DNA from: an uncultured Solibacteraceae bacterium
GTDB lineage: Bacteria; Acidobacteriota; Terriglobia; 20CM-2-55-15
DNA length: 64,000 bases
NCBI GenBank assembly: GCA_964584785.1
Contig: CAZPBY010000045.1
Coordinates: 2,024-66,023, forward strand
Direction: 5' to 3'
The notes beneath the pieces are model-generated. The model was not told the origin of the DNA, did not search any database, and worked only from the letters and a program-made list of their open reading frames with translations. Each line of letters opens with the position of its first letter. Within the stretch, counting starts at the first letter, position 1. Below are positions 15,917 to 36,441 of this stretch, piece by piece. The translations under genes were made by a program, and so were the position numbers.

Positions 15917-18900
15917 ATGCTCCGTCCGAATTCTCGTTCTTTGAAACGTATTCAAGTTGTGTTCGCATTTCTCGCCACGGCGACAATTCTTTGGATTGTC
16001 GGCGACGCGATCGCTCAGCAGGCACCGCAGGCCGGCCGTAATGTCAATATGGTCTCCGGAACGGAATTGCCTGACGGCGATCCGTTCCGCCAGCGGCAGG
16101 ACGAACCTTCCATGGCGATCTCAACCCGAAACATCCAACACCATGTGGCCGGGGCGAATGACTATCGCACCGTGGATCTGCCTGGCGTGGTTGATGCCGC
16201 CGTCCATCGTGATTCGTGGCTGGGGATATTCAAATCGCTCGACGGTGGGAATACGTGGAAAAGTACGCTGATCCCCGGCTATCCGCAAGATACCTCACCC
16301 GAAGGGATGGCATCTCCGCTCAAAGGCTTTCAGGCCGGCTCTGACCCCGGTGTGAGAGCCGCCGCGGGCGGATTGTTCTACTACCTCGGAATAGTTTTCA
16401 ACCGCACGGAAGACAAGCAGGGTGTGCTCTTTGTTTCACGTCTGGTCGACAACAATAATAAGGAAGCCGGCGATCCCATCGTGTACGTGGACACAAACCT
16501 CGTACACAAAGGCAATAAGAAGCATTTCCTGGATAAGCCATGGATGGCGGTGGATGTTCCCCGTCAAAAGCGAGACGCGTGTTCGATCCGGGTGCCGGAT
16601 GGAAAGGGAGGTTTCTCGACACAAACTTTTCCGGGCGGAAATATCTACGTCTCGTACGCAGACATCGACGATAACGATCCGGATCCGGACGCGACGCGAT
16701 TGATGTTCACCCGTTCCACGAACTGCGGTGTCTCATGGGAAGGCCCGGTCCGGCTCAGCGATCCTCACACAGTCAATCAAGGTTCGGTGATCGCGATCGA
16801 CCCGAATACCGGAGCTGTTTACGTGTCGTGGCGCCAGATATTTATTTCGACCGCTTCGAAGCCCGCGCCGGACGCGATCATGATCGCAAGGTCGGTCAAC
16901 GGGGGAATTGCGTTTTCGAGGCCGGTAACGGTTTCCAAAATCGCTCCCTTTGATCTTCCCACACTGCCGGCGCCGGCGGACTGCACCGGCAATTCGTGCT
17001 ATCGGCGATTTCGAACAGACACGTTTCCGGCGCTTACCGTTGATGCCGGTGCGGATGCGAACCGTCCGGGCCGTGTGTATGTGGCGTGGTCGGAGCGTGG
17101 CCGGGGTCCACTTTTTGACGCTCGAATCGTCGTGGCGGTTTCTCAGGACGACGCAACCACGTTTTCTGCTCCGATCGCTGCCGATAATGTCGGAAAGCCG
17201 GGACATCAGATGATGCCGTCCATGATTTTTGCAGCCGGCAAGCTGATGCTGCTTTACTACGATTCCCGCGAAGATATGCGGCCGGTTCCTCTGGAATACC
17301 TCGCCGATCCCGCCGATCCGAACTTGCGTCTCTGGCATACCGTCGATGTGCGGGCGGCGATGGCCGATCCTTCGAACACGCCCGTGTTTGTTTCGTCGCA
17401 AATCTCCCGCTACCTGTACCTGCTCGACTCCAAGGGCAAACCGCGGCAGGCGCAGGCCAATCCCGTGAACTATCCCATGTTCAATCAGGGACGGGTTCCA
17501 TTCATTGGCGACTACATCGATGTAACCGCACCGCTCATGATCCAGGATCAGAGCGGGCAGTGGAAATTCAATACGCAGCCGACCAGCTCACCGGTGTTCC
17601 ATTCCACCTGGACGGACAATCGGGATGTCATCCCGCCGCCGAAACCGCAGAACTGGACCAAATACGCGCCCGCCGGATCACTGGGCGGAACGCAAAGTTT
17701 TTTCGATCCCAGCAAAACAATCGATGCCTGCGTCGCCGGAAACGCCGCCATGCGGAACCAGAACATCTATTCCGCACGGATCACGCAGGGCCTCGTCGTC
17801 AGTTCACCAGGCAACGCCAAGCCTCTTGGGAAGATTCAGCGCGCCTTCGTCGTTTACGTCGAGAACACGACCAACAAGACGCGCTTCTACCGGCTTGCGA
17901 TCAACGGACAGCCGGTTGGAGGACGCGCGTCTTTCCTGCAATTTGAACAACGCAATTTCCTGGACGTCACGGTGGCTCCGCGCTCGAGCATTTCGCGAGT
18001 CGTCTTTATGACGTCGACCAATCCTCACGCGAGTGTGCAAGTGGATGTCACGGAGATTGGCTCGATCGGCGGATCGCCGGTGGCCGGAGGCAATCAATCC
18101 GCCGTTGTTTTGAATCCGGATATTTTGAATCCCGACATCCTGAATCCGGACATCCTCAATCCGGATATTCTCAACCCCGACATTCTTAATGTTGAAGTGT
18201 CGAATCCCGACATCACGAATGCCGCGCTTCGACCGGACATCCTGAACCCGGACATTCTGAATCCCGACATCCTGAATCCGGACATTCTGAACCCGGACAT
18301 TTTGAATCCCGATATTCTGAATCCGGACATCCTGAACCCGGACATTTTGAATCCGGATATTCTGAATCCAGACATCCTGAACCCGGACATTCTGAATCCC
18401 GACATCCTGAATCCGGACATTCTGAATACGGATCCCGAGGTTGTGAACGCGGACAAATCGAAGCTTCAGATCAACGATTTGTTCTGGAATGTCACCAACA
18501 AGGGCAACACGACGTCTGTGTTCACGTTCAAGATGACGTTCCCGTCGAGGCCTCGCGGTTTCAAGTTTCAATTGCTGATCTACCGCACTTCTGCGACTCC
18601 GGCCGTCAGCGGCTGCGCTCCGATCCAGCAATCGCACGAACAACTGGTTGCGAACATCGTTAACCCGGACATTCTGAATCCGGACATCCTGAATCCCGAC
18701 ATTCTCAATTCGGACGTCCGCAATTCTTCGCTGTTCGTTGCTCCCGGCGACAGCATCCGGGTTCAGCTGCGTGTTTTCGATCTCGACAAGTTTGACGCGA
18801 ACGTCATTCAGATCAAGCCCTCAAAGTCTTCGACGACCAACGCCGCCAAAACCCTGATGGCATTTGCGGCGGAATCTCTGGATCTCGGCATATTCGAGGA

Positions 18901-21900
18901 TGTCCAGATCGGTGGACAACCGCTGACCGCGTCGGTCGTGAGTCAGGCGGTCGATACCGATAAGGCGCAGGCGGGAATCACGCAGCCGACGTCTGTTACG
19001 ACGCGGTTGACGGTGACCACAACGGTTCTTCCCTCCGGTCGAATTGGTGAATCATTTTCGAACCAACTGGTGGCCAGCGGCGGCACCGATCCATTGACGT
19101 GGGGTCTGGCCCCCGGTTCAACGCTTCCAGCGAACCTGACACTATCGCCGACTGGACTGCTGAGTGGAACGCCGGCGGCAACAGGTACATTCACCTTCAC
19201 GGTGATCGTGACCGATAGTGCGGGCCAGGCGGCGACGAGAGATCTCACTTTTGCGGCTTCACCACCACTGGGAACCCCGTCGCTGGTGTTCGTCACGCAA
19301 CCTGCGACTTGTGCCAACCCGGATCCCAACTGCGTGCGCCAAAACGCACCGATGACCCCTCCTGTCTCAGTGCGGGCGCTGGATGCGTCAGGCGCACCAA
19401 TTCCGGGTCTCGCGATCTCGCTGGCCATCGGCCTCAATGGCGGCGGTGGTGTCCTGGCCGGAGCGACGACGGCCACGACCAACCTTAACGGTATTGCCGG
19501 CTTCGGCGGTCTCACGATCAGCCAGCCCGGGACGTACACGCTCGTCGCCTCCGCGACGGGTTTCTCGCCGGTCACCACCAGTGTGTTCAATGTACTTCCC
19601 AGCGTGACGATCACGACGGTGTCCTTGCCCGATGGGATCCGCGGTGTTGTCTACGACACGACTGTCGCTTCAGTAGGAGGCGTCGGCGCGAAGACGTGGA
19701 CGATCACTACAGGCGCGCTCGCTTCGGGTCTGTTATTGGATTCGAACACTGGAAGGATTTCCGGACCTCCTGCAAGCTCCGGCACTTCGAACTTCACGCT
19801 ACAGGTTGCGGATGCCGGACAACCGCAACAGAGCAACAGCCGTTCGTTGTCGATTCGCGTTGCAGAGCCGCTGCTCATCCTGACTGCGGCCAGTTTGCCT
19901 GACGCAACGGCGAACACGAGCTACTCGCAGCAGCTTTCGAGTAGCGGTGGAATCCCATTCGTGACGTGGAGCGTGGCGATCGAGTCCAGTCTGCCCGCGG
20001 GACTGACGTTGACGGCCGGCGGCCTTCTTGCCGGCACTCCAACCACCGCAGGGGACTATGCATTTACGATCGTCGCCAACGATGCCAGTAACCCCGCGCA
20101 AATTGTTTCAAGGAATTTCAGTTTGCATGTTGCGGCATCGGGTCTGTCGCTGACATCACTGGATGTGAGCTCCGCGGCGCAAGGAGCAACGAAGAATGTG
20201 ACGCTGACCGGCACGGGCTTCTTAGCCGGCGCAACGAACGTTTTCTTCGGCGGCGGTGGTGTTCAGGTCTTATCGTCGGCCGTCAACTCGCCGACGAGCC
20301 TTACCGCAACAGTCGTCCTGGCCGACGCGCCGGCAACGCGCAGCGTGTTTGTCACAACGATCGGCGGTACGAGTAACACGTTGCCGTTCGTGATCACACC
20401 GAATACGTTATCCGCCGCTGGGGCTTCGGATGTGACACACCTCGCCGGCTCGACCGGCGGTCCGGGTTCAAGCAACGGCGCCGCAGGCTCCACAAAGTTC
20501 CGGCAGCCGTACGGAATCTTCGGCGCCGGCGCAAACCTTTACGTCACGGACTTCCTGAATCACACCATTCGTGGTGTGAGCCTTTCCAATGGCTCTTCGA
20601 CCACACTGGCTGGATCTGCCCTGAGTCCGGGTTCCGCGGACGGCACCGGGCCCGCTGCAAAGTTCTTCCATCCCGTCGGAGTGTGGTCCGACGGGACGAT
20701 CCTGTGGATTGCCGACAGTGACAACTCGCTGATCCGGAGAATGGTTTTGTCGACTGGTGTCGTCACCACGATCGCCGGATCGACCAGCGGCTTTGCCGAC
20801 GGTACCGGCACGGCAGCGCAGTTTAATTCTCCACGCAACATCTGGAGCGATGGCACGGATCTGTTTATTGCGGACACCGGAAACCATGTGATTCGCCGTA
20901 TGAATCTCGATTCGAAAGTCGTTACGACGATTGCCGGCAGTCCAGGCGTTAGCGGATCGACTGACGGAGTCGGAAGTGGCGCAAGTTTCAACAGCCCGAG
21001 TGGAGTGTGGGGAGATAGTGCGGGGAATCTCTACGTCGCGGACACCGGAAACAACTCCATCCGGTTGATCGTCATCTCATCTGGAACCGTGACAACGATT
21101 GCCGGCTCCACGCTGGGAGTTCCCGGAAGCGCCAACGGAACCGGCACGTCCGCCAGGTTCAACGGCCCGACCGGCATTGGAGGCAACGGCATCTTCCTGT
21201 TCATCGCGGATACCAACAATCACCTCGTGCGCGTCATCACGATCGACGGCCTCAATGTCGGCACGCTGGCCGGGAATCCTGGAGTGTCGGGTGATGCGGA
21301 CGGCGTGGGAGGTTTGGCCAGGTTCAATCTCCCGCTCGGCGTGTGGTTCGATGGAGACGCGAGTCTTTACGTGACGGATGGATTCAACCATGCCATTCGA
21401 AGCGTGAACGTTTTCACCGGCGCAGTCACCACATTCTCCGGTCAGCCGCCGCGAAGTGGAATTACTGACGCTTCGGCCGATGCGGCGCGATTCTTCGGTC
21501 CATCAGATGCCTGGGGCGATGGCGTCGGTAACTTGTATGTAACGGATCGTTTCAATCATTTGATCCGGAAGGTCGTGATCGCTACAGGCCAGGCGACGAC
21601 AATCGCAGGTCAGGCGGGAGTGTGCGGCACCGCGAACGGCATCGGCGCAGCCGCTCAGTTCTGCGATCCCGTCGGCATCTGGGGTGACGGTGTGAGCCTG
21701 TACGTCGCAAGCGGTGCGTCGCGAACCATTCGCAAGATTGTCATCGCGACAAGTCAGGTGACCACGATCGCAGGAACCGCATTCGCCGGCGGCTCCACGG
21801 ATGGCGTCGGAGCCGCGGCTCGTTTCAATCTGCCCAACGGAATCTGGGGCGACGGAAGCTCTCTGTACATTACGGACTTCACGAGCAACACCATTCGTAA

Positions 21901-22849
21901 GCTCGTGTTGAGCACAGGTCAGGTCACAACACCATTTGGCCTGGCCGGCGCTGCCGGAAGCACGGACGCTGTTGGTACTGCCGCCCGGTTCAACCGTCCC
22001 TCAAAAATATGGGGCAACGGCTCAACGCTCTTCGTCACCGATACAAACAACAACAAGGTTCGAAAGATTGTCCTCTCGACCGGACAGGTTTCGACGTTTG
22101 CGGGCAGCGGCTCATGCGGTTCCGCGAACGGAGTAGGGACGGCCGCGCAGTTCTGCGGCCCGACCGGGATCTGGGGCGATGGTTCCAAGCTGTATGTCAT
22201 CAGCTCGGGCGAAGTGCGTCAGATCTCGATGACAACTTCTGTGGTGACGACACTGGCCGGATTGTTCTCCGTTCCGGGATCCGACGACGCGAACGGTCCT
22301 TCGCCGATTTTCCAGGCTCCTGAAGGTTTGTGGGGAGACGGCAACCGGCTCTACATCGCCGACGTGAGGAATAACGCGATTCGCACTCTCTCGCCCGCAA
22401 TGGGCCCGGAGGCCGGCACCGTGGTCTACAACTTCAACGCGCCGCAGTTCGCGCCGGCGCAGATCACGCCGTTTACCGGCATTTCACCCAATATTGGAAG
22501 CCCCAATTTCCTGGCGGACTTCACTGCAAACACGTCGTTGTACGCGATCACCAGCAGTCCGCCGTGGGCTCTGTTCAGCGGACAGCATCTCAAGAGCCAG
22601 TGCTTTTGCTCGCAATCTCTGACGATCAACTTCAACACCCCCGTGTACGCGGCGAGTGTGAACTTCGCAAGCATCGGGGTCGGGTTCACATTGACGATCA
22701 CCACTGCGGTTGGCAGCGCCAGCGGGATCAGCGGCGTTTCCGGAGGAACCGTGTTTTTCTCAAGTGCGACGCCCTTCACCTCGATTCAACTGGGGACGGG
22801 CGTCTTCGCCATCGACAACCTGGTGCTGAGCACCGTTCCACGGCCGTAG
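15917..22849 (+). CDS. Giant secreted protein (~2310 aa): Asp-box/sialidase-like propeller, NPDIL repeats, putative-Ig and IPT-like domains, NHL-repeat propeller(s)
   Basis: SD-like GAGGG before ATG 15917; signal peptide; Asp-boxes (SLDGGNTW, STNCGVSW, SVNGGIAF); He_PIG-type units (LPAGLTLTAGGLLAGTPT); many NHL units (FNSPSGVWGDSAGNLYVADTGNNSIR). Confidence 0.85.
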   Translation: MLRPNSRSLKRIQVVFAFLATATILWIVGDAIAQQAPQAGRNVNMVSGTELPDGDPFRQRQDEPSMAISTRNIQHHVAGANDYRTVDLPGVVDAAVHRDSWLGIFKSLDGGNTWKSTLIPGYPQDTSPEGMASPLKGFQAGSDPGVRAAAGGLFYYLGIVFNRTEDKQGVLFVSRLVDNNNKEAGDPIVYVDTNLVHKGNKKHFLDKPWMAVDVPRQKRDACSIRVPDGKGGFSTQTFPGGNIYVSYADIDDNDPDPDATRLMFTRSTNCGVSWEGPVRLSDPHTVNQGSVIAIDPNTGAVYVSWRQIFISTASKPAPDAIMIARSVNGGIAFSRPVTVSKIAPFDLPTLPAPADCTGNSCYRRFRTDTFPALTVDAGADANRPGRVYVAWSERGRGPLFDARIVVAVSQDDATTFSAPIAADNVGKPGHQMMPSMIFAAGKLMLLYYDSREDMRPVPLEYLADPADPNLRLWHTVDVRAAMADPSNTPVFVSSQISRYLYLLDSKGKPRQAQANPVNYPMFNQGRVPFIGDYIDVTAPLMIQDQSGQWKFNTQPTSSPVFHSTWTDNRDVIPPPKPQNWTKYAPAGSLGGTQSFFDPSKTIDACVAGNAAMRNQNIYSARITQGLVVSSPGNAKPLGKIQRAFVVYVENTTNKTRFYRLAINGQPVGGRASFLQFEQRNFLDVTVAPRSSISRVVFMTSTNPHASVQVDVTEIGSIGGSPVAGGNQSAVVLNPDILNPDILNPDILNPDILNPDILNVEVSNPDITNAALRPDILNPDILNPDILNPDILNPDILNPDILNPDILNPDILNPDILNPDILNPDILNPDILNPDILNTDPEVVNADKSKLQINDLFWNVTNKGNTTSVFTFKMTFPSRPRGFKFQLLIYRTSATPAVSGCAPIQQSHEQLVANIVNPDILNPDILNPDILNSDVRNSSLFVAPGDSIRVQLRVFDLDKFDANVIQIKPSKSSTTNAAKTLMAFAAESLDLGIFEDVQIGGQPLTASVVSQAVDTDKAQAGITQPTSVTTRLTVTTTVLPSGRIGESFSNQLVASGGTDPLTWGLAPGSTLPANLTLSPTGLLSGTPAATGTFTFTVIVTDSAGQAATRDLTFAASPPLGTPSLVFVTQPATCANPDPNCVRQNAPMTPPVSVRALDASGAPIPGLAISLAIGLNGGGGVLAGATTATTNLNGIAGFGGLTISQPGTYTLVASATGFSPVTTSVFNVLPSVTITTVSLPDGIRGVVYDTTVASVGGVGAKTWTITTGALASGLLLDSNTGRISGPPASSGTSNFTLQVADAGQPQQSNSRSLSIRVAEPLLILTAASLPDATANTSYSQQLSSSGGIPFVTWSVAIESSLPAGLTLTAGGLLAGTPTTAGDYAFTIVANDASNPAQIVSRNFSLHVAASGLSLTSLDVSSAAQGATKNVTLTGTGFLAGATNVFFGGGGVQVLSSAVNSPTSLTATVVLADAPATRSVFVTTIGGTSNTLPFVITPNTLSAAGASDVTHLAGSTGGPGSSNGAAGSTKFRQPYGIFGAGANLYVTDFLNHTIRGVSLSNGSSTTLAGSALSPGSADGTGPAAKFFHPVGVWSDGTILWIADSDNSLIRRMVLSTGVVTTIAGSTSGFADGTGTAAQFNSPRNIWSDGTDLFIADTGNHVIRRMNLDSKVVTTIAGSPGVSGSTDGVGSGASFNSPSGVWGDSAGNLYVADTGNNSIRLIVISSGTVTTIAGSTLGVPGSANGTGTSARFNGPTGIGGNGIFLFIADTNNHLVRVITIDGLNVGTLAGNPGVSGDADGVGGLARFNLPLGVWFDGDASLYVTDGFNHAIRSVNVFTGAVTTFSGQPPRSGITDASADAARFFGPSDAWGDGVGNLYVTDRFNHLIRKVVIATGQATTIAGQAGVCGTANGIGAAAQFCDPVGIWGDGVSLYVASGASRTIRKIVIATSQVTTIAGTAFAGGSTDGVGAAARFNLPNGIWGDGSSLYITDFTSNTIRKLVLSTGQVTTPFGLAGAAGSTDAVGTAARFNRPSKIWGNGSTLFVTDTNNNKVRKIVLSTGQVSTFAGSGSCGSANGVGTAAQFCGPTGIWGDGSKLYVISSGEVRQISMTTSVVTTLAGLFSVPGSDDANGPSPIFQAPEGLWGDGNRLYIADVRNNAIRTLSPAMGPEAGTVVYNFNAPQFAPAQITPFTGISPNIGSPNFLADFTANTSLYAITSSPPWALFSGQHLKSQCFCSQSLTINFNTPVYAASVNFASIGVGFTLTITTAVGSASGISGVSGGTVFFSSATPFTSIQLGTGVFAIDNLVLSTVPRP
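18113..18706 (+). repeat. In-frame 15-bp tandem repeats encoding NPDIL/PDILN: 5 units (18113-18187), 13 units (18233-18427), 3 units (18662-18706)
   Basis: Counted from the DNA; the amino acids are identical but the codons vary synonymously. Confidence 0.95.
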
Positions 22850-22871
22850 TTTTGGAGTGAGACATTCTCCT

Positions 22872-25800
22872 ATGCGCGAATCACTGGTTAGTTGTGTTCG
22901 GTACGACGCTAAATGCGGCAAGTATTTATTCGCAGCGGTCGCTTTTCTGTTTTTGACTTGCAGTCCACTGCACGCCCAACTGAGTTTCAATAGCGGCAAC
23001 TTCGGCACGGTGGGTTTCAGTCAGAACGCCTTCTCGTTGACACCATCGGGAGGTACGGGAAATTACACTTTCTCGTATGCGCCCGGTGCCGCCACCATTC
23101 CGGGTTTTCGTGTAACGAACCGACCGAATGTGCCGAATTTCTTTTCGGCGGGTAGTACAGGCGGTCTCGTCGGAATCGCGGCGGTACCGGGAACTTACTC
23201 GACCACGATCCGTCTGACGGATAACGGCTCGGCTTTGTTTGTGGATAAAGCCGTCAGCTTTACGGTGACCACCGTGGATATTGCAGGTGGCCCCCAAAGC
23301 GGCTACGGAGTCGGTGACACGGTGAGCTTCCCATTCTGGGGTGTGGGCGGAACCGGTCTACCATACACGTTTTCTCTGGCGTCCGGCACATTGCCGCCGG
23401 GTTTGACATTGAATTCATCGACGACTGCCATCGATGGTCTGCTCAAACTCGAAGGTACGCTGACGACGGCCGGAACGTTCGGCTTCAATCTCAAAGTCAC
23501 CGATAGCGCAACGAACACACGCACTGTTGGTTACTTCATTACTGTTTCGCCTTTACGCCTCGTCCTGACGAACCACTTTTTGCCACCGATCAATGTGAAC
23601 CAGCTGTTTTCGCAGACACTGATAGCGTCGGGATGTTCAGGCACTTGCACTTTCTCGCTCGTGTCCGGTGACGCTCTCCCCGCCGGTCTGACCCTCAGTT
23701 CGGCAGGAGTGATCAGCGGGACTCCTACCGCGCTCACCTATGGAACGGCGTTTACAGTTGTCGTTACCGATGCGGCGAACAACACGATGAGTCGTCGTCT
23801 GTCGATGGCGGTGATACCGGACATACCTCAGCCTTTGGCGATATCGACCACATCGATTGGCGACACTGTGGTCGGATCCAATTTCTCGTGGGGCATCACT
23901 CCAAGAGGTGGTCTTCCGCCTTACAGTTTTTCGTTTGATTCACCATCCAGTTTGCCGCCCGGCAGTTTTATGTTCCCGACGGAAGGAACAGCCGCGGTGT
24001 CCTGGGACCCGAACTGGGGTATGTTTCGAGCCAGACCCTTAGTGACCGGTAATCGCGATTTTGTCATGAGGGTCACGGACAGTGCCGGAAACACGGCGAC
24101 TCGCCTTATTCCGTGGCGGGTGACGTCGATTGGTGCGTACTACAGCAACCAAAGCCTTCCAGTAGGTGGAACCGCAACACCAGTTTTGGGGAAACCTTAC
24201 GCACAGCCTCTCATTTTGCTCGGCGGCACACTTCCGTACACGGTCACGCCCGTAAACCTCGCAGGTCTGTCGGTTGATGCGGATGGCATGGTGTCGGGCA
24301 CTGCTGCCGAGGCCGGACGATTCTTGCCCTTCAGTTTTAACATCCAGGATTCTTCCATTCCGCCCAACAACTATTCCTGGAGCGGAAATATTACGGTCGA
24401 TGCGCCTTCAACGACCACGCTTGCCCTGACCGGCGGGGATTTCGGCGTTTTTCAAAAGGGCGTCCAGTCGACGATCACTTTGTTCGCGGGCGGATCGCCG
24501 GTGAATCCGCCGAATTTTGTGGTGACTATTCTTAGCGGCTCGTTGCCTCCCGGACTCCGATTACTGACCGTCGGTGATTTCAACAACGTGGGTGATATCA
24601 CGCGGGCCGCGCAAATCGCGGGCATTCCGACAACAACCGGCTCGTTTTCCGCACTCCTGAACGTTCAGGATGCAGCCGCCAACATTGGTCAGCGACAGCT
24701 GAAATTCCGTGTGAGCGATATCGGGTTTGTCACGACGGGTGTGGCTCCTGGCACGGTGGGCGTTCCCTACACTCAGACGTTCGAGGTGAGGGGCGGAACG
24801 ATGCCGTACACATTCACATCGAATGTAACTCTGCCAGGCGGTCTAAGCCTCAACGCCCTGACGGGGACGCTGAGCGGTACTCCGACGAGCTCAAACTCCA
24901 CTTCGTTTGGACTCGTCGTTACGGATGCGAACGGCGACAGCATTGTCCGCAACTACACGGTGAATATCTACGACATCCAAATTACGAATCCCAACCTGCT
25001 GCCGAACGCCATTTTCGGCGAATCGTATACCGTGAACTTCGCGGCATTGCCCGCTGGACCATATGCCTGGACAGCAACGGGGCTTCCGACAGGTCTCACG
25101 CTGGATCCTGTCACAGGCGTGCTCTCCGGAGCACCGATTGGTACTGGAACATTCACTGTGACTGTCACTGCCGGAACTTCAAGTCATGCGGTGAACAAAA
25201 CGTTCACACTCATCGTCGCCTCGCGCTCGATCAGTACGATTTTGACCGGTCTTCCCACGGCATCGCTTGGTGACTTCGTCGTAGGCGCCTTCGTCAACAC
25301 CATTCTTGGTATCGTCGGAGGTACGCCGCCATACACGATCTCTGTGGTGGCGGGGTCCGCACTTCCACCTGGACTGGCGCTTGCACCTTCGAACACAGCG
25401 TCGGGCACGGCTGGATTTGGCCGAACCGCAATTGTGGGAATTCCAACCACAAAGGGCAGTTACTCGTTTCAACTGAGGTATTCGGATTCGGCAGGCGTAA
25501 GCGTCGTTCGAACGGTGACCATGCGCGTCAGCGGACTTGCACTGGCCACAACCACGCCCGGTTTGGGTACGGTGAACGTTCCCTACACGACGCAGTTGTT
25601 CGGCAGCGGCGGCACCGGTTCTTACATGTTTGCGCTTGCGGACGGTCTGACCAACGTGCTGGCGCCCGGTCTCAGTTTGAGCGCGTCCGGCGTCATTTCC
25701 GGAACACCCACCGCGACGGGCACCTTCACCACGACCATTTTGCTGAGCGACGGTGTAGACACCCGACAGCAAAACATAACGATCACCATCAATGCGACCA

Positions 25801-29120: not shown

Positions 29121-30194
29121 ATGTCAGTCAACACGCTATTGAAACGAGTAACAGCGATAGCCGCGATTTTGCTGATTGTCGCGGGCTTCTTTACCGCCCC
29201 GCTGCGAGCGGCGGACAACTTCGGATATACCGCGACCGGCAATGTCGCGTATTCCTATGTAGATGTCTCCACAACCGGCACCGCCGTACTTGCCAATGCG
29301 GACGATGCTACGGCTTTGCTCACACTGCCGTTCGGATTCCGTTTTTACGGTGTCACGTACACGAGTCTGTGCGCGAGTACCAACGGCTTGATTGCGTTCG
29401 GCGGCTGTCCAACCGGAGACATCACGAACCTCGACCTGACGGTGCAATCGCCGACAGGCAACCTGCCGTTGATCGCACCATTCTGGATGGACCTGACGTT
29501 CGCGATCCCGGGCGCCGGCAGCATCATTTACCAGACGCTCGGCGCAGAGCCCGCACGGCGTTTTGTCGCTCAATGGAAGGGCGCATTCGCGTTGAATCAA
29601 CCGAGCCCGCTCGATTTTCAAGTCATCCTGTACGAAGGCACGAACCAGATTCTGTTTCAATATCAGAACGTCGAAACGGCCAACGCCGAGATCAGTAAAG
29701 GCAAGAGCGCGACGGTCGGCATTCGGGCAACGGACGGGCAGGCAAATGGGAATCGCGTGCAGTGGAGCTATCGCACGGCCGTGTTGACCAACCGCTCGGC
29801 GATTCGCTTCGAACCGCCCACAGCAATCCCGGTGACGATTGATCTGAAGCCGGACAGCAATCCGAATTGCGTCAATCCAACTTCCAGAGGAACCGTGCCT
29901 GTCGCGATCTTCGGCACGAGCAAGTTCGCTGTTGCAGACATCGATCAGTCCAAACTCCGCTTCGGAGGCGCAGCCGCGCGAAGCTGCGCTGTTGACGACG
30001 TAGGCACAAAGGATGGACTTCCTGATCTTGTATGTCACTTCGAGACTACGGAAGTAACCACCTGGCCGGCCGCGGGAGCGGATTGCGGAAAGATCAACCT
30101 TACCGGCAGCTTGAAATCGGGGTTTGGAATCACCGGTTCGGACATCGCTTGCCGTGTTGCGGAACGTACCTGTAAAGCTGGGCCGACACCCTAG
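29121..30194 (+). CDS. Secreted nidogen(NIDO)-like domain protein with C-terminal IDxKP domain
   Basis: SD AAGGAG; signal peptide; LPFGFRFYG..Y...STNGLI.F and IAPFWMDL; C-terminal IDLKPDSNPNCVNPTSRGTVPVAI...DGLPDLVCHF. Confidence 0.7.
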   Translation: MSVNTLLKRVTAIAAILLIVAGFFTAPLRAADNFGYTATGNVAYSYVDVSTTGTAVLANADDATALLTLPFGFRFYGVTYTSLCASTNGLIAFGGCPTGDITNLDLTVQSPTGNLPLIAPFWMDLTFAIPGAGSIIYQTLGAEPARRFVAQWKGAFALNQPSPLDFQVILYEGTNQILFQYQNVETANAEISKGKSATVGIRATDGQANGNRVQWSYRTAVLTNRSAIRFEPPTAIPVTIDLKPDSNPNCVNPTSRGTVPVAIFGTSKFAVADIDQSKLRFGGAAARSCAVDDVGTKDGLPDLVCHFETTEVTTWPAAGADCGKINLTGSLKSGFGITGSDIACRVAERTCKAGPTP

Positions 30195-30249
30195 CCACGT
30201 CATCTAACCAGCCGTTCACACGATTGTTCATCCTGGTGAGGGTACCAAC

Positions 30250-33200
30250 ATGTCCAGACTACTATCGCGTTCTTGCTTCGTCCTCGTGGTGCTGTCCGCC
30301 CTATGCAGTCCGCTTCACGCGCAACTGAATTTCAACAGCGGCAATTTCGGCACGTTGAGTTTCGGTCAAGCGGTACTCTCCTTCGATCCGTCGGGCGGGA
30401 CTGGACCTTATACATTTTCGTATGCGCCCGGCGCTAGCATCATTCCAGGCTTTCGCGTGACGAACCGTCCTGACGTCCCCGTTTGGTTCGGGCCGAATAC
30501 AACAGGCGCCTTGGTTGGTATAGCAACGCCGGACACATGCGCGCCAACCGGCAACTGCAGTACGACTATTCGCCTCAGCGATGCCAACGGATTTATTGAT
30601 CGTGTCGTGTCGTTTTCAGTGACTTCGGTCGACATTGGAGGCAGCACGTTTTCCGGCTATGGCGTGGGTGATCGCATTGACTTCCGATTTTGGGGCGTAG
30701 GCGGTTCGGGGTCGTATACATTCACGCTTGATTCGGGGACGTTGCCGCCGGGAACGCAGATCCACAATCAAGCGGGCGCGTTTACAGGCATTTCAGTCGA
30801 TGGGGTGCTGACAACCGCAGGCGGTTACAACTTTTCACTGAAGCTTACGGATAGTGCGAACCATTCGGTGACACGCGGTTACTTCGTTTCTGTCTCGCCA
30901 CTACACTTGGTACAGGATCGTATCTTGCCTGCGGCAAACGTGGGCCTGTTCTATAGTCAAACTCTAACTGTAACGGGCTGCACCGGGACTTGTACCTTCT
31001 CAGTCGACGAGGCTATTGGTCTACTTCCCACGGGCTTCACCCTTTCACCGGCTGGGGTACTGAGCGGCACACCGACGTTTTCGAGCTTCTTTAACAACTT
31101 CACGTTGATCATTACCGACGGCATAAACACGATCCGCCGGCGCATGCAGTTAACCTCTCTGCCTGTGACCCCAACACCATTGACCGTAAGTACAACGTCA
31201 GTGTCCGATGTGGTTGTCGGGTCAGGATCCTTTCCAGGGATTTCAGGCTCCGGTGGATTCCCACCGTACAGTTTCAGTCTGGATAGCTCTTCAAGTCTGC
31301 CAGCAGGTGCTTTCATCTTGCCGGCAGCGGCACTCGGGCCGGAGTTTAACCCGCTGCAGGGTTATGTTGGATCCAGAGTACTTGCCGCAGGCGATCACGA
31401 TTTCGTGATTCGCATCATCGATAGCGCAAACAACACGGCCACTCGACCACTGCCATGGCGGGTTACTAACTTGACTACGAACCAATGCTGCATTTCGACG
31501 GCGGTTTTCGGAGTGCCACTTACACCGTACGCGTTGGTTATCATGGGTGGAACGCCTCCTTATACCGTAGCCCCGAACACCATAGCTGCAGGACTTACAA
31601 CCGACAATAATGCGATCATCTCAGGAACCCCGAAGGAGATCGGACAGTTCCTGACACTGAACCTCACTATTCAAGATTCGGCCAACCCCAAGAACAGTTT
31701 TACGCTATCGGGTTACACAACTATTACGGCATCACCGACTTCAACAGGCCTGCTCGTGTCCGGTGGAGACTTTGGGCCGCTGCAAAAGGGTGTTCAAACT
31801 GCTTTCAGCATCTCGGCGTCGGGTTCGTCAGCGTTACCGAGGAACTTCACGGTCAGCATTCAGGAAGGCTCGCTGCCTCCAGGAATGACGCTTCTGACAG
31901 GAAACAACTTTAACAACAGCGGAAACGTAGATATCGCTGCGCAGATCGCCGGAGTGCCGACGGTTGCCGGTGTGTATAGTGTGCTGTTGCGTGTGCAGGA
32001 TGGTGCGGGCAATATTGGCCAGCGTCAAATTCGCATCAGAGTCAGTAGTCTTGCGTTCGTCACATCGACGTTAGCCGTAGGCTCCGTCGGCATTCCGTAC
32101 AATCAGACGATTGAATTCCGTGGTGGTCAGGCTCCATACACCCTCACTTTGACAAACGGAAGCCTGCCGACGGGGCTGTCGCTGAACGGCCCTACGATCA
32201 GCGGTACTCCAACGACGAGCAATTCCACATTCGCCGGAATACGTATTACCGACGCCACCGGAGACTCTATCATCCGAAACTTCACGTTGAATATTTACAG
32301 TCTCCAGATTACCAATCCCAACATTCTGCCGACAGCGTACTTCGGTGAAGTCTATTCGCCTGTTACGTTCGTGGTTAGCCCTCCGGGCTCTTACACGTGG
32401 ACTGCGGTTGGGATTCCACTCGGCCTCACGCTGGATAGCACAACCGGCGTTTTGTCCGGCACACCGATTTCATCCGGCTCCTTTAACATCACCGTCACCG
32501 CCGGTACCAGCAGTACTGTGGTTGTTAAAACGTTCACGATGTTTATCGCAGTCCGCTCGACCACGGGCGTGTTAACGGGTCTACCATCCACCTTCGGCGA
32601 CGTCTTCGTCGGCTCAACCTTAACGACGACATTGGGAGTGTCTGGAGGGACTCCGCCATACACCATCGCACTCGCTCCCGGTTCAATCCTTCCACCAGGT
32701 CTCGCGATTGTGCCTGCCACAAGCATCAACGGAAACGCGTTTTTTGGCCGATATTTTCTGGCGGGCGTGCTGACGACGGCGGGTGACTACAGTTTCCGGT
32801 TGAGGTATACCGACGGGGCTGGTCTTACGGTGGACCGAACCATAACGATGCGAGTGGTTTCGATTGGAGTAGCTACAACGTCACTCGGCCTCGGTACAGT
32901 GAATGTTCCTTACTCCACGCAACTCTTCGGCGTTGGCGGCTCGGGTCCGTTTACGTTCTCGTTGTCCAATATTGCGAACAACATCCTGCCGCCGGGACTC
33001 ACGTTGAGCTCTTCCGGTGTGGTTTCGGGAACGCCTACTTCCACCGGCAGCTTTGGGTTCACCGTTGATCTGACTGATGGCGTATCGACGCGGCAGCAAA
33101 GCGTCGTCATCACCATAAACGCGACCAGCGATCTGCGACGTATTGACTTTGGCACTGTGATCCCAGTGACGCTCTCGATGGGAAGGGGTTTCGCGACAAC

Positions 33201-36200
33201 CTTTGTCCCGATTAACGGATCCGGTACGCATACCTGGTCTATAGTGTCGGGCTCGCTGCCGCCTGGTCTACTCCTTCGCGCGGACGCGACACTACCTTCG
33301 ACGGTCCTACCGCCAAATGCGCTGATCGCGGGTGTGCCGACGACCGCAGGCACTTACAAATTCACGGTTCGTGTCGATGACCAGACAGGCAATTTCGGTA
33401 CTCGCGAGATGACATACAGGATCACACCGCTTCGCGCCGGACCGGCGAACTTGCCTCAGACTCGTGGCCTTGTTGCACCGCCTCTTCAAGCCGGAGTGCC
33501 GTACTCGTTTGGGTTAACTGCTTATAACAACACCGGACCGGTGACGTTTGGCGATCTCGTTGGAACATTCATGCCGTCGGGCGTTGCAATGAACTCAACA
33601 GGCGTAGTCAGCGGTACCGCCGCCGATCTCGGTAATTTTACTGAGCTCTACGTTATGACGGATGGTGCCGGAAGTACTTTTCCAAATGGCGCCCTTGGTT
33701 TCGTAGTGTATCCATCAGGCCGCCCGATTGGTGTGAATGGCCTGACTGGCGCTACGTTCGCCAATGCCACCAAGGGATCAGCGTATTCCAAGAACCTGAA
33801 TGATCTGTTATTTCCGGGTTACGGCACACCACCATTCACATGGGCTGTGCTGAACGGCTCACTGCCTGCAGGTATGTCGATACTTGGAAGTGTGCTGACG
33901 GGCACTCCGACAGACATTGGCACATCGTTCTTCTCGTTGAAGGTGACGGATGCCAATGGGAGTCAGCACGTGGTACCCAATCAAATCCTGTCGGTGTCGT
34001 TAATGAGTCTGACTCCAGGACCCGGTATCTTGCCGCCTGCAATCGCCGGAGTACCCTACAGCCAGACATTTACGCCAGCCGGAGGTGTTCCACCAGTCAC
34101 ATTCCGGCTCGGCTTAGGCTCCGATCTCCCCGTGGGGCTGACTCTATCTTCCGCGGGCGTATTGAGCGGCACACCAACAACGTCAGGTCCGTTCATACTA
34201 CTGATCGAGGCAGTCGATAATTTCGGCGCGACGTTTCTTCAGCGATACACGCTGGACGTGGCTCCCGTCGGGACAGTACTTCCATCTCTCAAAACAACTC
34301 CATCAAGCATCAATTTGAACTATGTTCGAGGGAATCCCAATCCAACTCCCATTACGGTCAATGTCGAAAGCACTTCAGGAAACTTGAATTTCACAGCGCA
34401 GACTGCAGGTGGGACATGGATTTCGGTAGCGCCAGGAAGCGGTTCAACGCCGGGATTTGTGACGTTGAGTTTCAACATGGCCGGATTGCTTGCCGGCATT
34501 TACAACGGCGCTCTAAATGTCACTGCCGCGTCGGCGGTGAACTCACCGTTGTCGCTGCCGGTCAAGCTCACAGTGACGGATGCCTTACCGTGTAGTTTCG
34601 CGTTGAACCCAACGGCATCCACTATCGCTGCCGGTGGCGGCTCGCTTAGTTTCGATGTCACCACCGACTCATCTTGTAACTGGACGGCGTCGACGGCTGT
34701 TCCATGGATCACCATCAACTCGCCGGGTAGCGGTACTGGAACAGGAACCGTGAATCTGTCCGTTCAACAGAATCCAAACCCGACCACACGTACCGGAACT
34801 GTGACGGTGCAGGGTCTGATCTACACGGTCACACAATTCGGCACGGAGTGCTCCTTCACACTGATCCCCAATTCGATCAACGTGGATGCGTTTGGAGGTA
34901 TCGGCACTATCAATGTGCAGGCGTCGAATGCGGTCTGTTCATGGACAACGGCTCAAACTGATCTCTGGATCGCCGCTAATCCATCGGCAGGGACAGGGTC
35001 GACGAATGTCGATGTCACGGTTCAAAGCACGAGCGGCACGTCGAGTCGCGTCGGAAGCATCACGATTGCCGGGCAAGCGCTCACCGTCAATCAAGCCGGC
35101 CTGGGCTGCTTCTACTTTCTGAGCAACTCACAACCAAACCCGCCCCAATTCTCTTCGTCGGGCGGCGGGGCATCAGTAGATTTGACCACGCCGGCGGGTT
35201 GCGCGTGGAAGACGGACCCGGGTCCGAGTTGGATCAAGGTGACGGCAGGCCAGTCGGGATTTTCCAGCGGGCGCGTGACGTTGACGATCGCTCCGAATTC
35301 CAGCACGGTGGCGCGTTCGGCGACAGTTTTGATCGCCGATCAGGAGTACGACGTCAGTCAGGACGGCGTGTCGTGCAGTTTCAGCGTCGGTGTCGATAAC
35401 ACCCTGTTTGCCGTTGGCGGCGGTGCGGGCAACGTCGTAATCACTGCTACACCGAAAGTTGCAGGCGGCTTCTGTCCATGGGTCGTCTCGTCGAATGGGT
35501 CGTGGCTCACGCCTTCGGTGTCTTCGGGCAACGGTTCGCAAACGGTGTCCTTCAATGTTTCGGCGAACGGCGGCACAGCCGCGCGCAGCGCGACGTTGAA
35601 CGTGGCAGGACAGAACATTGTGATCACCGAGTCCGGACCGGTTTGTGAATTCAGCCTGCGGTCTTCGGCAGCAACCATGCCGTTTGGTGGTGGCGCGAAT
35701 TCAGCCGGCGTCGTCACCGCTAACGGCTGTGGCTGGACCGCCACGTCGAATGCGCCTTTCATCACAGTGGCGCCGGTGTCTTCCAGCGGCACTGGAACAG
35801 GTGACGTCAACTTCGACGTGCAGCCGAACAGCACCGGCACCTCGAGGATCGGCACGTTAACGATCGCCGGTCAGACGTTCACGGTAACTCAGGCCAAGGC
35901 GCCCTGTTCGATCATTCTCGGTTCGAGCTCATTCAACGTGGGCCCATTCGGCGGAACCGGATCGTTCTCTTACACGTCGTCGGTGAACAGTTGCGAACAC
36001 ACTGTGCTCAGTTACTCGAGCATGGTCACCGTCACGTCTACAAGTTATTCCGGAACTGCCGGCACCGTGAATTTCTCAGTCGAGCCTAATGGTTTTGCCG
36101 CCGCACGATCGGGCGTGATTCGAGTGGGGGAAGAAAGCTTCACAGTCAATCAGGATCCCTCCACATGCCAATACACGCTGACCGCATTCAGCGCCAGCTT

Positions 36201-36441
36201 CGATCGGCTCGGTGGACCTGGGTCCATACCCATGACCTTCGCTCCAGCGGCATGCGGTCCGGCCGGCGCACTGGTCAAGGGGCCCGCATCTATGATCACG
36301 CTAGGCGACGTTTTGAAGGACGGTGGTACTTACAATCAAACGTTCAGTACCGGAATCTATCAGTCCTTTATTAATTACATTCGGACGGCCCAGATCATCA
36401 TCAATGGACAGATATTCACTGTGAAACAGACATCCTGGTAG
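30250..36441 (+). CDS. Giant secreted putative-Ig + BACON repeat protein, paralogue B (2063 aa)
   Basis: Colinear with 22872-29105 from SPLHA|QLNFNSGNFG to the identical C-terminus FTVKQTSW. Confidence 0.9.
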   Translation: MSRLLSRSCFVLVVLSALCSPLHAQLNFNSGNFGTLSFGQAVLSFDPSGGTGPYTFSYAPGASIIPGFRVTNRPDVPVWFGPNTTGALVGIATPDTCAPTGNCSTTIRLSDANGFIDRVVSFSVTSVDIGGSTFSGYGVGDRIDFRFWGVGGSGSYTFTLDSGTLPPGTQIHNQAGAFTGISVDGVLTTAGGYNFSLKLTDSANHSVTRGYFVSVSPLHLVQDRILPAANVGLFYSQTLTVTGCTGTCTFSVDEAIGLLPTGFTLSPAGVLSGTPTFSSFFNNFTLIITDGINTIRRRMQLTSLPVTPTPLTVSTTSVSDVVVGSGSFPGISGSGGFPPYSFSLDSSSSLPAGAFILPAAALGPEFNPLQGYVGSRVLAAGDHDFVIRIIDSANNTATRPLPWRVTNLTTNQCCISTAVFGVPLTPYALVIMGGTPPYTVAPNTIAAGLTTDNNAIISGTPKEIGQFLTLNLTIQDSANPKNSFTLSGYTTITASPTSTGLLVSGGDFGPLQKGVQTAFSISASGSSALPRNFTVSIQEGSLPPGMTLLTGNNFNNSGNVDIAAQIAGVPTVAGVYSVLLRVQDGAGNIGQRQIRIRVSSLAFVTSTLAVGSVGIPYNQTIEFRGGQAPYTLTLTNGSLPTGLSLNGPTISGTPTTSNSTFAGIRITDATGDSIIRNFTLNIYSLQITNPNILPTAYFGEVYSPVTFVVSPPGSYTWTAVGIPLGLTLDSTTGVLSGTPISSGSFNITVTAGTSSTVVVKTFTMFIAVRSTTGVLTGLPSTFGDVFVGSTLTTTLGVSGGTPPYTIALAPGSILPPGLAIVPATSINGNAFFGRYFLAGVLTTAGDYSFRLRYTDGAGLTVDRTITMRVVSIGVATTSLGLGTVNVPYSTQLFGVGGSGPFTFSLSNIANNILPPGLTLSSSGVVSGTPTSTGSFGFTVDLTDGVSTRQQSVVITINATSDLRRIDFGTVIPVTLSMGRGFATTFVPINGSGTHTWSIVSGSLPPGLLLRADATLPSTVLPPNALIAGVPTTAGTYKFTVRVDDQTGNFGTREMTYRITPLRAGPANLPQTRGLVAPPLQAGVPYSFGLTAYNNTGPVTFGDLVGTFMPSGVAMNSTGVVSGTAADLGNFTELYVMTDGAGSTFPNGALGFVVYPSGRPIGVNGLTGATFANATKGSAYSKNLNDLLFPGYGTPPFTWAVLNGSLPAGMSILGSVLTGTPTDIGTSFFSLKVTDANGSQHVVPNQILSVSLMSLTPGPGILPPAIAGVPYSQTFTPAGGVPPVTFRLGLGSDLPVGLTLSSAGVLSGTPTTSGPFILLIEAVDNFGATFLQRYTLDVAPVGTVLPSLKTTPSSINLNYVRGNPNPTPITVNVESTSGNLNFTAQTAGGTWISVAPGSGSTPGFVTLSFNMAGLLAGIYNGALNVTAASAVNSPLSLPVKLTVTDALPCSFALNPTASTIAAGGGSLSFDVTTDSSCNWTASTAVPWITINSPGSGTGTGTVNLSVQQNPNPTTRTGTVTVQGLIYTVTQFGTECSFTLIPNSINVDAFGGIGTINVQASNAVCSWTTAQTDLWIAANPSAGTGSTNVDVTVQSTSGTSSRVGSITIAGQALTVNQAGLGCFYFLSNSQPNPPQFSSSGGGASVDLTTPAGCAWKTDPGPSWIKVTAGQSGFSSGRVTLTIAPNSSTVARSATVLIADQEYDVSQDGVSCSFSVGVDNTLFAVGGGAGNVVITATPKVAGGFCPWVVSSNGSWLTPSVSSGNGSQTVSFNVSANGGTAARSATLNVAGQNIVITESGPVCEFSLRSSAATMPFGGGANSAGVVTANGCGWTATSNAPFITVAPVSSSGTGTGDVNFDVQPNSTGTSRIGTLTIAGQTFTVTQAKAPCSIILGSSSFNVGPFGGTGSFSYTSSVNSCEHTVLSYSSMVTVTSTSYSGTAGTVNFSVEPNGFAAARSGVIRVGEESFTVNQDPSTCQYTLTAFSASFDRLGGPGSIPMTFAPAACGPAGALVKGPASMITLGDVLKDGGTYNQTFSTGIYQSFINYIRTAQIIINGQIFTVKQTSW

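Follow-up and report, generated by a model that had tools for sequence, protein, structure and literature searches.

A conserved giant protein and its NIDO-like neighbor as a candidate surface-attachment pair in Acidobacteriota

Introduction

In soils, Acidobacteriota rank with the most abundant bacteria; to our knowledge, there is essentially no work on how giant repeat proteins are displayed or released in this phylum, and we know of no described export route for its adhesins. The question of how such proteins might be held at the cell surface is raised by a 64-kb stretch of DNA (64,000 nucleotides, hereafter the window) from an uncultured Solibacteraceae bacterium, an acidobacterial genome sampled from rock; the closest relatives of the cluster discussed here are labelled Bryobacterales or Solibacteraceae. 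Four adjacent open reading frames (ORFs), g1-g4, had been described in a sequence-only reading as an operon of giant surface proteins with Sec-type signal peptides and no recognisable signal for outer-membrane export or anchoring. The present analysis points to a smaller conserved unit, a giant protein together with a NIDO-like partner, which may form part of a multi-subunit extracytoplasmic structure.

Organization of the gene cluster

The four ORFs are located on the + strand at 15917-22849 (g1, a 2310-aa accessory giant), 22872-29105 (g2, a 2077-aa core giant), 29121-30194 (g3, a 357-aa partner protein), and 30250-36441 (g4, a 2063-aa paralogue of g2), coordinates that reproduce the previously claimed spacing of 22, 15 and 55 nt. 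A Shine-Dalgarno-like motif lies upstream of every one of the four starts. The g1 ORF opens at GTG 15809, and its ATG at 15917 is preceded by such a motif (GAGGG); an alternative GTG start of g2 at 22857 would leave a 7-nt gap after g1. The gene junctions were covered without differences by independently assembled contigs from three rock-metagenome runs, demonstrating that the arrangement of g1-g4 is not an assembly artefact.

The sole long non-coding gap ahead of g1 is a 416-nt intergenic region (15502-15916, +), presumed to hold the promoter. Neither a consensus sigma-70 site nor an Rfam match was found in this region, Rfam and tRNA scans of the whole window were also empty, and no terminator-like site was detected in the gaps between g1-g4; the promoter and terminator scans of the cluster were at or below chance. 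All sequencing runs that contain the cluster sequence were DNA runs. Indirect support for a putative shared transcript comes from the short gaps, the lack of terminator-like sites within them, and the gene order kept in related loci.

A conserved two-gene cassette in related genomes

Examination of related loci revealed a two-gene cassette composed of a He_PIG/BACON giant of the g2 type followed by a NIDO-like protein of about 340 aa (g3 type), which recurs across about 27 loci, most of which carry Bryobacterales or other Acidobacteriota labels. Starting from NIDO homologues, the giant was found on 6/6 contigs carrying them (L001, L002, L004, L043, L044, L045) and in 15 of 16 genome loci with close NIDO homologues (L006-L019, L021, L022), the exception (L011) being cut by a contig end. 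Conversely, in all five loci selected by the C-terminal domain (CTD) of the giants only (L039-L042, L096), which were picked using short gene fragments from a protein search with the CTD profile, a NIDO gene lies directly downstream, indicating that the link between giant and NIDO protein holds both ways. Wherever the gene end is visible in Acidobacteriota-type loci, the g3-type gene adjoins the gene of a CTD-bearing giant, at its 3' end or, in some cases, at its 5' end, with spacers of about 10-20 nt in well-assembled loci or with overlapping genes, and this adjacency is kept across giants that are only 32-54% identical. The four-gene operon thus did not hold up as the unit: what is conserved is the pair of giant and NIDO protein, to which a second giant arisen by duplication (g4) and an optional accessory protein (g1) are added here. 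The suggestion of a co-assembled multi-subunit structure, by comparison, gains strong support from the conserved order of g2/g4-type and g3-type genes.

All-against-all clustering of the approximately 27 loci, many of which are error-prone long-read contigs with broken genes, recovered as recurrent elements the giant, the NIDO protein, antisense shadow ORFs, and a small PEP-CTERM family; no recurrent membrane or secretion gene was found beside the cassette. A small PEP-CTERM protein is present within the cluster in at least 10 related loci, including members of the NF038129 family in L004, L006, L008 and L009 (97-124 bits, cutoff 65) and also L022; small neighboring genes of related loci also match PF07589 (25-27 bits, cutoff 20.7). 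Other PEP-CTERM proteins occur in the clusters of L017/L096 and L021, and the L019 cluster encodes a protein that combines a cohesin with PEP-CTERM.

The paralogous giants and their terminal domain

The g2 product consists of a signal peptide (aa 1-35), a He_PIG array, a BACON array (nt ~27252-28799) and a terminal domain. Ten He_PIG matches (PF05345) were detected in each of the two giants (g2: E 1.4e-61, 205.4 bits; g4: E 2.3e-47, 159.8 bits; cutoff 24), together with BACON and BACON_2 (PF13004 and PF19190; 87.5 and 63.6 bits in g2, 103.1 and 75.7 bits in g4, all above the cutoff of 25). Over its full length, g2 is 42-54% identical to the giants of L001, L002, L004, L006 and L008. The two paralogues share 68% identity overall, a value that falls to about 55% over the N-terminal 1200 aa and rises to about 85% over the C-terminal 800 aa. 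Among their identical codons, 35-60% differ synonymously, so the duplication is old and recent gene conversion can be ruled out as the source of the similar C-terminal halves; more probably, the BACON array and the CTD are under stronger purifying selection. Among the giants in general, the BACON array and CTD are constant and the N-terminal domains vary.

The CTD is a BACON-like Ig sandwich at 28800-29102 (+) in g2 and 36136-36438 (+) in g4, and both copies end in GQIFTVKQTSW-COOH. On the CTD profile, the terminal domain of g2 scored 111 bits versus 20-36 bits for its internal BACON repeats, that of g4 scored 113 bits, and across the giants the corresponding ranges were 70-127 and 10-45 bits. 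It occupies the extreme C-terminus in 75 of 76 representative proteins of 764-5045 aa. The end shared by g2, g4 and their relatives is family-specific, G-x-x-[FY]-x-[VI]-K-Q-x-S-[WYF]-COOH. Gly at position -11, which lies outside the selection pattern, was present in 64/65 motif-selected proteins ending in an aromatic residue; within the choices left open by the pattern, Gln prevailed at -4 (63/65), Ser at -2 (63/65) and an aromatic residue at the very end (64/65), and Lys at -5 was required by it. No curated model matched the CTD. The earlier claim that these proteins have no recognisable tail is therefore correct as regards catalogued models, but g2 and g4 do carry a family-specific terminal domain whose last residues, K-Q-x-S-[WYF]-COOH, are near-invariant. 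In the AlphaFold2 model of the last 100 aa of g2 (Ig sandwich, pLDDT 89), QIFTVKQT forms the final strand; as the motif is placed with high confidence in or just after the last strand, it could merely cap the last Ig domain.

The NIDO-like partner and the accessory giant

The g3 product comprises a signal peptide (aa 1-30), a NIDO-like domain (aa ~31-232, nt 29211-29816), and a Cys-rich beta domain (aa 233-357). The Pfam NIDO model (PF06119) matched it weakly (18.1 bits versus a gathering threshold of 25). Among its 99 homologues, however, the N-terminal domain is highly conserved and many members have a precomputed PF06119 match; the family also carries an APFW-x-D-L type motif, which we take to be characteristic of animal NIDO domains. 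The g3-family profile detected the N-terminus of RemZ from Flavobacterium johnsoniae (residues 13-265, PDB 8gl6 chain D) with E 1.5e-12, and a Foldseek search of the g3 model (pLDDT 80) against PDB returned nothing meaningful (TM <= 0.2). The NIDO domain is the constant part of these proteins, and the C-terminal half is variable. Several partners or relatives bear anchoring modules, such as dockerin (L040, 38 bits; also P0055-57) and SLH (P0043); a distant NIDO protein has a fused PEP-CTERM (P0065), and T9SS tails are present in others (P0079 among them). Literature searches on bacterial NIDO domains or acidobacterial giant BACON proteins yielded nothing relevant. For the animal NIDO proteins (nidogen, MUC4, tectorin), we likewise know of no defined function of this domain.

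The g1 product contains a signal peptide (aa 1-33), an Asp-box-type region (aa ~40-700), N-P-D-I-L pentapeptide arrays, a He_PIG/Ig region (aa ~990-1480), about 10-12 NHL repeats (aa ~1500-2160) and a small C-terminal beta domain (aa 2146-2310), with Pfam matches to He_PIG (E 1.5e-25, 89.9 bits, cutoff 24), NHL (E 1.4e-11) and CarboxypepD_reg-like. Sialidase-type Asp-box (BNR) proteins are recognised by repeated S-x-D-x-G-x-T-W motifs, a six-bladed propeller and a BNR model match; in g1, four Asp-box-like motifs were found by regular expression (aa 107, 267, 326 and 409), and Pfam models and a PDB sequence search gave zero matches to aa 1-728. The pentapeptides are encoded by a 15-bp tandem array at 18111-18432 (+; 21.7 copies, 74% matches), and a second, short array lies at 18654-18719. 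Homologues of g1 adjoin the cassette in L002 and L019 and have NPDLT and NPRIE arrays, respectively, at the same position. Close relatives of g1 are also found in L046 and L048 with no giant, NIDO or CTD in the flanks, which argues against g1 as an obligatory component. The possibility that g1, which ends in STVPRP, is a decayed PEP-CTERM protein was rejected as well: its sole two homologues (P0100 and P0101) extend into Pro-rich linkers and other domains with no PEP-CTERM, and reading through past the stop yields no helix.

Export and sorting signals

As previously proposed, all four proteins carry Sec-type signal peptides, each called by heuristics as a single hydrophobic stretch at the N-terminus with an A-x-A-like site behind it; no C-terminal hydrophobic segment was found in g1-g4, and the four products lack membrane anchors. 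The reported lack of known surface-sorting domains was likewise borne out by model searches of g1-g4, including their C-termini alone at E<=10. Autotransporter/T5SS barrel models had zero matches, and the last 100 aa of g2 instead fold as the Ig sandwich described above. There was no HemolysinCabind/RTX match in g1-g4 and no ABC, MFP or OMP gene of a type I system in the window, no PEP-CTERM match (TIGR02595, PF07589) in g1-g4 or any other ORF of the window, no T9SS sorting domain (TIGR04183, PF18962, TIGR04131) in g1-g4 even at E<=10, and no LPXTG/sortase signal in the four proteins. Cohesin, dockerin and SLH elements were absent from the proteins of the window, no catalytic domain was detected in g1-g4, and, in agreement with the earlier description, no secretion gene was found among the other scanned ORFs.

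Proposed function and alternative explanations

We propose that the cluster encodes a multi-subunit extracytoplasmic fibre or adhesin, in which the NIDO domain of g3 would dock on the CTD of the giants and link them to the envelope or matrix; this proposal has, in our judgement, about an even chance of being correct. In this cluster, g2 and g4 would share a single g3. Attachment of the fibre to the envelope or the exopolysaccharide matrix might fall to the C-terminal half of the NIDO protein, which is variable, or to a small third subunit; in relatives, this third part might be an exosortase-sorted PEP-CTERM protein, an SLH domain, or a pair of cohesin and dockerin. The parts facing outward for binding would then be the Ig arrays in the divergent N-terminal regions of the giants and the propellers of g1, the facultative partner. 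Docking between CTD and NIDO is suggested by the strict adjacency and the pattern of constant and variable parts, and a surface location of the products by their domain types. The putative anchoring step is borrowed from relatives, because PEP-CTERM, cohesin, dockerin and SLH elements are all missing from the window; with no linked anchor gene in the window, the anchor here would be either unlinked or supplied by the Cys-rich domain of g3. In a more specific form, which we put forward tentatively and regard as rather less than probable, the CTD and the adjacent NIDO protein would constitute a new kind of pair for surface attachment or sorting, present chiefly in Bryobacterales and other Acidobacteriota, whose NIDO protein, as a dedicated receptor or adaptor, captures the C-terminus of the giants and hands them over to lineage-specific anchors (PEP-CTERM/exosortase, cohesin-dockerin, SLH).

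Three other explanations deserve consideration. The proteins might be ordinary secreted glycan-binding or glycan-degrading proteins that leave the cell via T2SS or vesicles, with the terminal motif as a structural cap and adjacency reflecting co-regulation and no complex. BACON, He_PIG, NHL and Asp-box-type modules are indeed frequent in secreted proteins that bind or act on carbohydrates, a linear signal is not a feature of T2SS substrates, and in the predicted structure the terminal residues are well ordered within the sandwich. However, strict two-way adjacency between such diverged giants and their partners, with short spacers or overlaps, is hard to reconcile with mere co-regulation, the lack of a detectable catalytic domain does not favor degradation, and the PEP-CTERM, cohesin, dockerin and SLH modules that recur in the cassette suggest proteins that are attached, not released; this explanation is considered unlikely.

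The CTD could also be a secretion signal for an unlinked and as yet undescribed outer-membrane translocon of Bryobacterales, comparable to the Ig-like CTD of T9SS cargo, with the NIDO protein as a co-exported shuttle, carrier or cargo. Its constantly terminal position, size of about 100 aa, Ig-like fold and near-invariant end behind passengers of very variable length would fit such a role, as would the lack of any other export signal in the proteins. On the other hand, the CTD is always preceded by a BACON array, suggesting that it behaves as part of one protein family and not as a tag used promiscuously; the approximately 27 loci contain no recurrent, conserved membrane or barrel protein; the NIDO proteins have no CTD; and a fold search with the CTD, in which a T9SS-like or other sorting fold had been sought, gave generic Ig domains only (e.g., titin) and none of the T9SS tails. 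We therefore regard a secretion signal as quite improbable. Least of all do we expect the products of g1-g4 to be retained within the envelope, forming a periplasmic or envelope-spanning scaffold needing no outer-membrane export signal, which would suit proteins with a Sec signal only and no assignable outer-membrane route, but NIDO-domain relatives carry modules of exported proteins (T9SS tails, dockerins, PEP-CTERM) and, as for fibrillar adhesins in general, Ig-repeat arrays of 2000 aa would reach far past the periplasm.

If the pair formed by CTD and NIDO protein is real, it would represent a modular way to display giant proteins in Acidobacteriota and the first functional context for bacterial NIDO-like domains. 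The system is testable, offering a two-gene cassette, a sharp C-terminal signature, a partner with anchor-bearing relatives and a recurrent genetic link to PEP-CTERM proteins, a group about whose own trafficking little is understood so far. Even if this reading is wrong, the results provide a useful annotation of a widespread uncharacterised family.

Comparison with known systems

In size, Ig-like stalk arrays, divergent distal parts and signal-peptide-dependent or dedicated export, the giants resemble Gram-negative fibrillar adhesins (RTX adhesins such as LapA and MpIBP, autotransporters, and intimin/invasin), but the cluster lacks RTX repeats, T1SS genes, a beta-barrel and a retention module, and has a dedicated small partner gene. 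BACON proteins of Bacteroidota and crAss-like phages share with them the Pfam BACON/BACON_2 repeats with paired cysteines; the present proteins differ in phylum, in having a C-terminal array that ends in a specialised terminal variant, and in not being lipoproteins of polysaccharide-utilisation loci. A likeness to cellulosome-type cohesin-dockerin pairs is seen in relatives only (NIDO with dockerin in L040 and P0055-57, cohesin with PEP-CTERM in L019) and not in the window.

PEP-CTERM proteins have been proposed to undergo exosortase-dependent trafficking to the cell exterior (PMC1569441; PMC12188702). The resemblance to this sorting system (Haft 2006, PMC1569441; NCBIfam NF038129 family) lies in the small PEP-CTERM gene of the related clusters, whereas g1-g4, unlike PEP-CTERM substrates, have no PEP motif, transmembrane helix or basic tail.

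A further parallel may be found in RemA and RemZ, T9SS gliding adhesins of F. johnsoniae, the latter having the N-terminal head that matches the g3-family profile. We know of no T9SS in Acidobacteriota. Unlike in RemZ, the head-like domain here is a separate polypeptide, the CTD has no T9SS model match, and the window contains no T9SS genes. As the NIDO-like domain of RemZ is a distal N-terminal head, the comparison would fit a binding tip equally well as an adaptor. The cluster and the Rem proteins have a common overall logic, which combines a head domain with Ig-type repeats and with an Ig-like C-terminal domain on which the fate of the protein depends (PMC10994853).

Gene cluster organization and export signals

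The tightly spaced cluster encodes Sec-exported giant repeat proteins. As the sequence-only reading had claimed, four ORFs are present on the forward strand, g1 (15917-22849, 2310 aa), g2 (22872-29105, 2077 aa), g3 (29121-30194, 357 aa), and g4 (30250-36441, 2063 aa), separated by 22, 15, and 55 nt; an alternative GTG start of g2 at 22857 would reduce the first gap to 7 nt. A Shine-Dalgarno-like motif precedes each start, and a GGAG motif lies 14 nt upstream of the g2 ATG at 22872. In line with the Sec-type signal peptides proposed for all four products, each N-terminus has one hydrophobic stretch, after which comes an A-x-A-type site (AIA/Q in g1, LHA/Q in g2 and g4, and LRA/A in g3), and no C-terminal hydrophobic segment was detected in any of them. 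In three rock-metagenome runs, contigs that had been assembled independently crossed every junction without differences, implying that the tandem order of the paralogues g2 and g4 is real.

The two paralogues share 68% identity overall, with approximately 55% in the first 1200 aa and 85% in the last 800 aa, which indicates that the BACON array and the C-terminal domain (CTD) are more strongly constrained. Since 35-60% of their identical codons differ synonymously, an old duplication appears probable and recent gene conversion does not.

The gene starting 59 nt past g4 (36501-37955, forward strand) encodes a signal-peptide-bearing protein of the metallo-beta-lactamase fold and could be co-transcribed with the cluster; such a gene adjoining the giants is not conserved in relatives. 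No secretion-system genes were present among the ORFs scanned elsewhere in the window, in agreement with the earlier reading, and no RNA genes were found in the window. The other scanned ORFs included amidases/amidohydrolases, TPR, FG-GAP/ASPIC, and ankyrin proteins, DUF1552/DUF1592 pairs, a two-component system, and an ECF sigma factor. Four TPR and FG-GAP/UnbV_ASPIC units, three of them gene pairs and the fourth a fused gene, were located at 43618-46328 and 50006-52863 on the reverse strand and at 52888-57155 and 56945-60364 on the forward strand; one TPR protein among them also has multihaem cytochrome-like motifs (Cytochrome_C554, MtrC-like). A DUF1552 and DUF1592/DUF1588/DUF1585 (PSD/PSCyt) gene pair occupies 39786-43530 (reverse), and a second DUF1592-type gene (2140-3951, forward) adjoins the ECF sigma factor gene (3961-4461). 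The amidase/amidohydrolase genes (10960-15501, 46457-48283, and 60392-61798) are unusually dense, numbering five in 64 kb, and three immediately precede the cluster. For a HicB-family antitoxin-like gene (6187-6717, forward), no obvious HicA partner was seen among ORFs of at least 150 aa.

Domain composition and the status of g1

Pfam matches comprised He_PIG, NHL, and a CarboxypepD_reg-like domain in g1, ten He_PIG stretches plus BACON/BACON_2 repeats in g2 and g4, and only a below-threshold NIDO match in g3. Thus, the NHL and BACON parts proposed earlier were recovered, the NIDO assignment stayed sub-threshold, and for the proposed Asp-box propeller four Asp-box-like motifs were seen without a Pfam match. 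These motifs lie in the first 728 aa of g1, a region for which neither Pfam models nor PDB sequences gave a match.

The g1 gene is a facultative partner, because its closest metagenome relatives (L046, L048) have no giant and NIDO genes nearby. In two related loci, L002 and L019, g1-like genes do adjoin these genes, the former having Kelch repeats in place of NHL. Both contain N-P-x-x-x pentapeptide arrays where the window has a 15-bp tandem array encoding approximately 25 NPDIL pentapeptides (18111-18432 and 18654-18719, inside g1). The NPDIL copies share just 74% DNA identity, and the homologous arrays at the same position read NPDLT (L002) and NPRIE (L019), suggesting that the repeat is kept as structure and not as sequence; it might be a solenoid or spacer, and it was matched by none of the Pfam pentapeptide models. 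The C-terminal domain of g1 (22352-22846) is a small beta domain and rare: a word search of 5.8 billion sequences yielded only two homologues, of which one (P0100) is secreted, stands alone, and has a helical tail. The g1 end VPRP resembles a PEP motif, which was not supported.

A family-specific C-terminal domain of the giants

In both g2 and g4 the CTD, a BACON-like domain, makes up the final ~100 aa and is clearly distinguishable from the internal repeats, which scored 10-45 bits on its profile versus 70-127 bits for CTDs. When proteins sharing these termini were sought, as the earlier reading had suggested, 1.84 billion cluster representatives were searched exhaustively with HMMER, which retrieved 112 proteins; 76 had a CTD-type domain, ending at most three residues from the C-terminus in 75. 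A relaxed terminal pattern was matched by 69 of the 112, with the aromatic as the last residue in 65. Among these 65, G(-11) occurred in 64, Q(-4) and S(-2) in 63 each, and an aromatic(-1) in 64, the pattern itself having imposed K(-5) and allowed only a few residues at positions -4, -2, and -1, without dictating G(-11) or the zero-length tail. Full-length carriers ranged from 764 to 5045 aa, and a BACON array preceded the CTD in all of them, with variable N-terminal parts (He_PIG, Big_1, HYR, PKD, DUF5648, or none).

An AF2 model of the CTD was a confident Ig-like sandwich (pLDDT 89) with QIFTVKQT as the last strand, for which Foldseek returned generic Ig domains and nothing else. It is unlikely that the giants are ordinary released glycan-binding proteins in which this terminal tail is a structural cap. 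Curated models for sorting or export (PEP-CTERM, T9SS, LPXTG, autotransporter, and RTX) did not match g1-g4, even when the isolated C-termini were searched at E<=10. The earlier view that the cluster has no catalogued sorting domain was therefore borne out for all four C-termini, but g2 and g4 do have a characteristic tail, the terminal CTD. That the CTD is a true secretion signal, read by an unknown translocon, seems slightly less probable still than a structural cap. The CTD is specific to this family, and terminal modules of this sort are usually the mark of a recognition event.

Conservation of the giant and NIDO cassette

The g3 protein has 99 homologues, mostly of ~340 aa, and the N-terminal ~200 aa of the family contain 47 invariant columns (23 sequences, 38-62% identity). 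In all contexts retrieved, genes of close homologues adjoin a g2-like giant, with the alignment reaching the very last residue of g2. This pairing was observed in the contig-derived loci L001, L002, and L004, then in L043, L044, and L045, whose NIDO proteins differ in their C-terminal halves, and in 15 of 16 species-representative genome loci, the sixteenth (L011) being cut by a contig end; all are MAGs labelled Solibacteraceae, Bryobacteraceae, Bryobacterales, Terriglobia, or Acidobacteriota only. In the reverse test, all five loci picked solely by the tail of the giants (L039-L042 and L096, the last nearly identical in sequence to L017) had a NIDO-like gene directly downstream. The cassette of a CTD giant and a NIDO gene is thus strictly conserved. 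Its usual order is giant then NIDO; in L019 and L011 the NIDO gene comes before a giant, in L045 before a large uncharacterised ORF of 2778 aa, and both orders occur together in the window (g2-g3-g4). NIDO domains that are more distant (L020, L023-L038) lie inside larger proteins of other phyla without a giant neighbour. Regarding the four-gene unit proposed earlier, the four tandem ORFs stand, but the conserved unit is the giant and NIDO pair.

Most of the NIDO partners P0005-P0044 (L004-L009, L012, and others), 16 of the 22 aligned, terminate in [FV]-x-x-K-[TV]-[YF]-S-G-[SAI]-F-COOH, loosely recalling the V-K-Q-T-S-W-COOH of the giants (Lys, then Ser, and a terminal aromatic). The C-terminal domain of g3 differs from this usual end, being Cys-rich and common only to P0002. 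In addition, a 355-aa antisense ORF (29136-30203, reverse) overlaps g3 almost exactly; equivalents occur in 19 related loci, and these ORFs resemble shadow ORFs opposite a G+C-rich gene rather than genes.

Anchoring modules in related loci

Relatives frequently have anchoring modules within the cluster. When flanking ORFs were clustered all against all, a single additional family recurred, a protein of ~200 aa encoded directly 3' of the NIDO gene, which belongs to the curated NF038129 PEP-CTERM family in L004, L006, L008, and L009 (97-124 bits; cutoff 65); L022 has a frameshifted copy and L007 a partial one. Other small PEP-CTERM proteins occupy the same position in L017/L096 and L021. Similarly, the giant is followed by a cohesin and PEP-CTERM protein in L019, and in L040 the NIDO partner bears a dockerin, with a PEP-CTERM fragment upstream. 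NIDO-family proteins elsewhere end in SLH, Big_3_5, FG-GAP-like repeats, PEP-CTERM, or T9SS tails; for RemZ, a Flavobacterium johnsoniae T9SS adhesin whose N-terminus matches the g3-family profile, the C-terminal domain is the only part resolved in PDB 8GL6. No PEP-CTERM ORF was detected in the window. PEP-CTERM proteins occur only in diderm bacteria having EPS genes, and their processing by exosortase, then export to the exterior, has been proposed (PMC1569441; PMC12188702). Retention of the giant cluster proteins in the periplasm is very improbable.

Proposed function and relation to known systems

Across these loci, the BACON array with the CTD and the NIDO domain are constant, and the N-terminus of the giant and the C-terminus of the NIDO protein are variable. 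We infer that the NIDO domain binds the CTD of the giants and that the complex would be attached to the envelope or matrix by means that differ among lineages. In the window, a single g3 may serve both g2 and g4, and the anchor would be either unlinked or supplied by the uncharacterised Cys-rich domain of g3.

No description of the CTD, the cassette, or a bacterial NIDO-like function was found in Pfam/NCBIfam HMMs or the literature. These findings overturn nothing, and provide a tangible, testable way into protein display in an abundant phylum that has been little studied. The products of g1-g4 belong to a familiar class, the giant Ig-repeat surface proteins, of which they form a novel type through the combination of a dedicated partner with the terminal signature and the link to PEP-CTERM.
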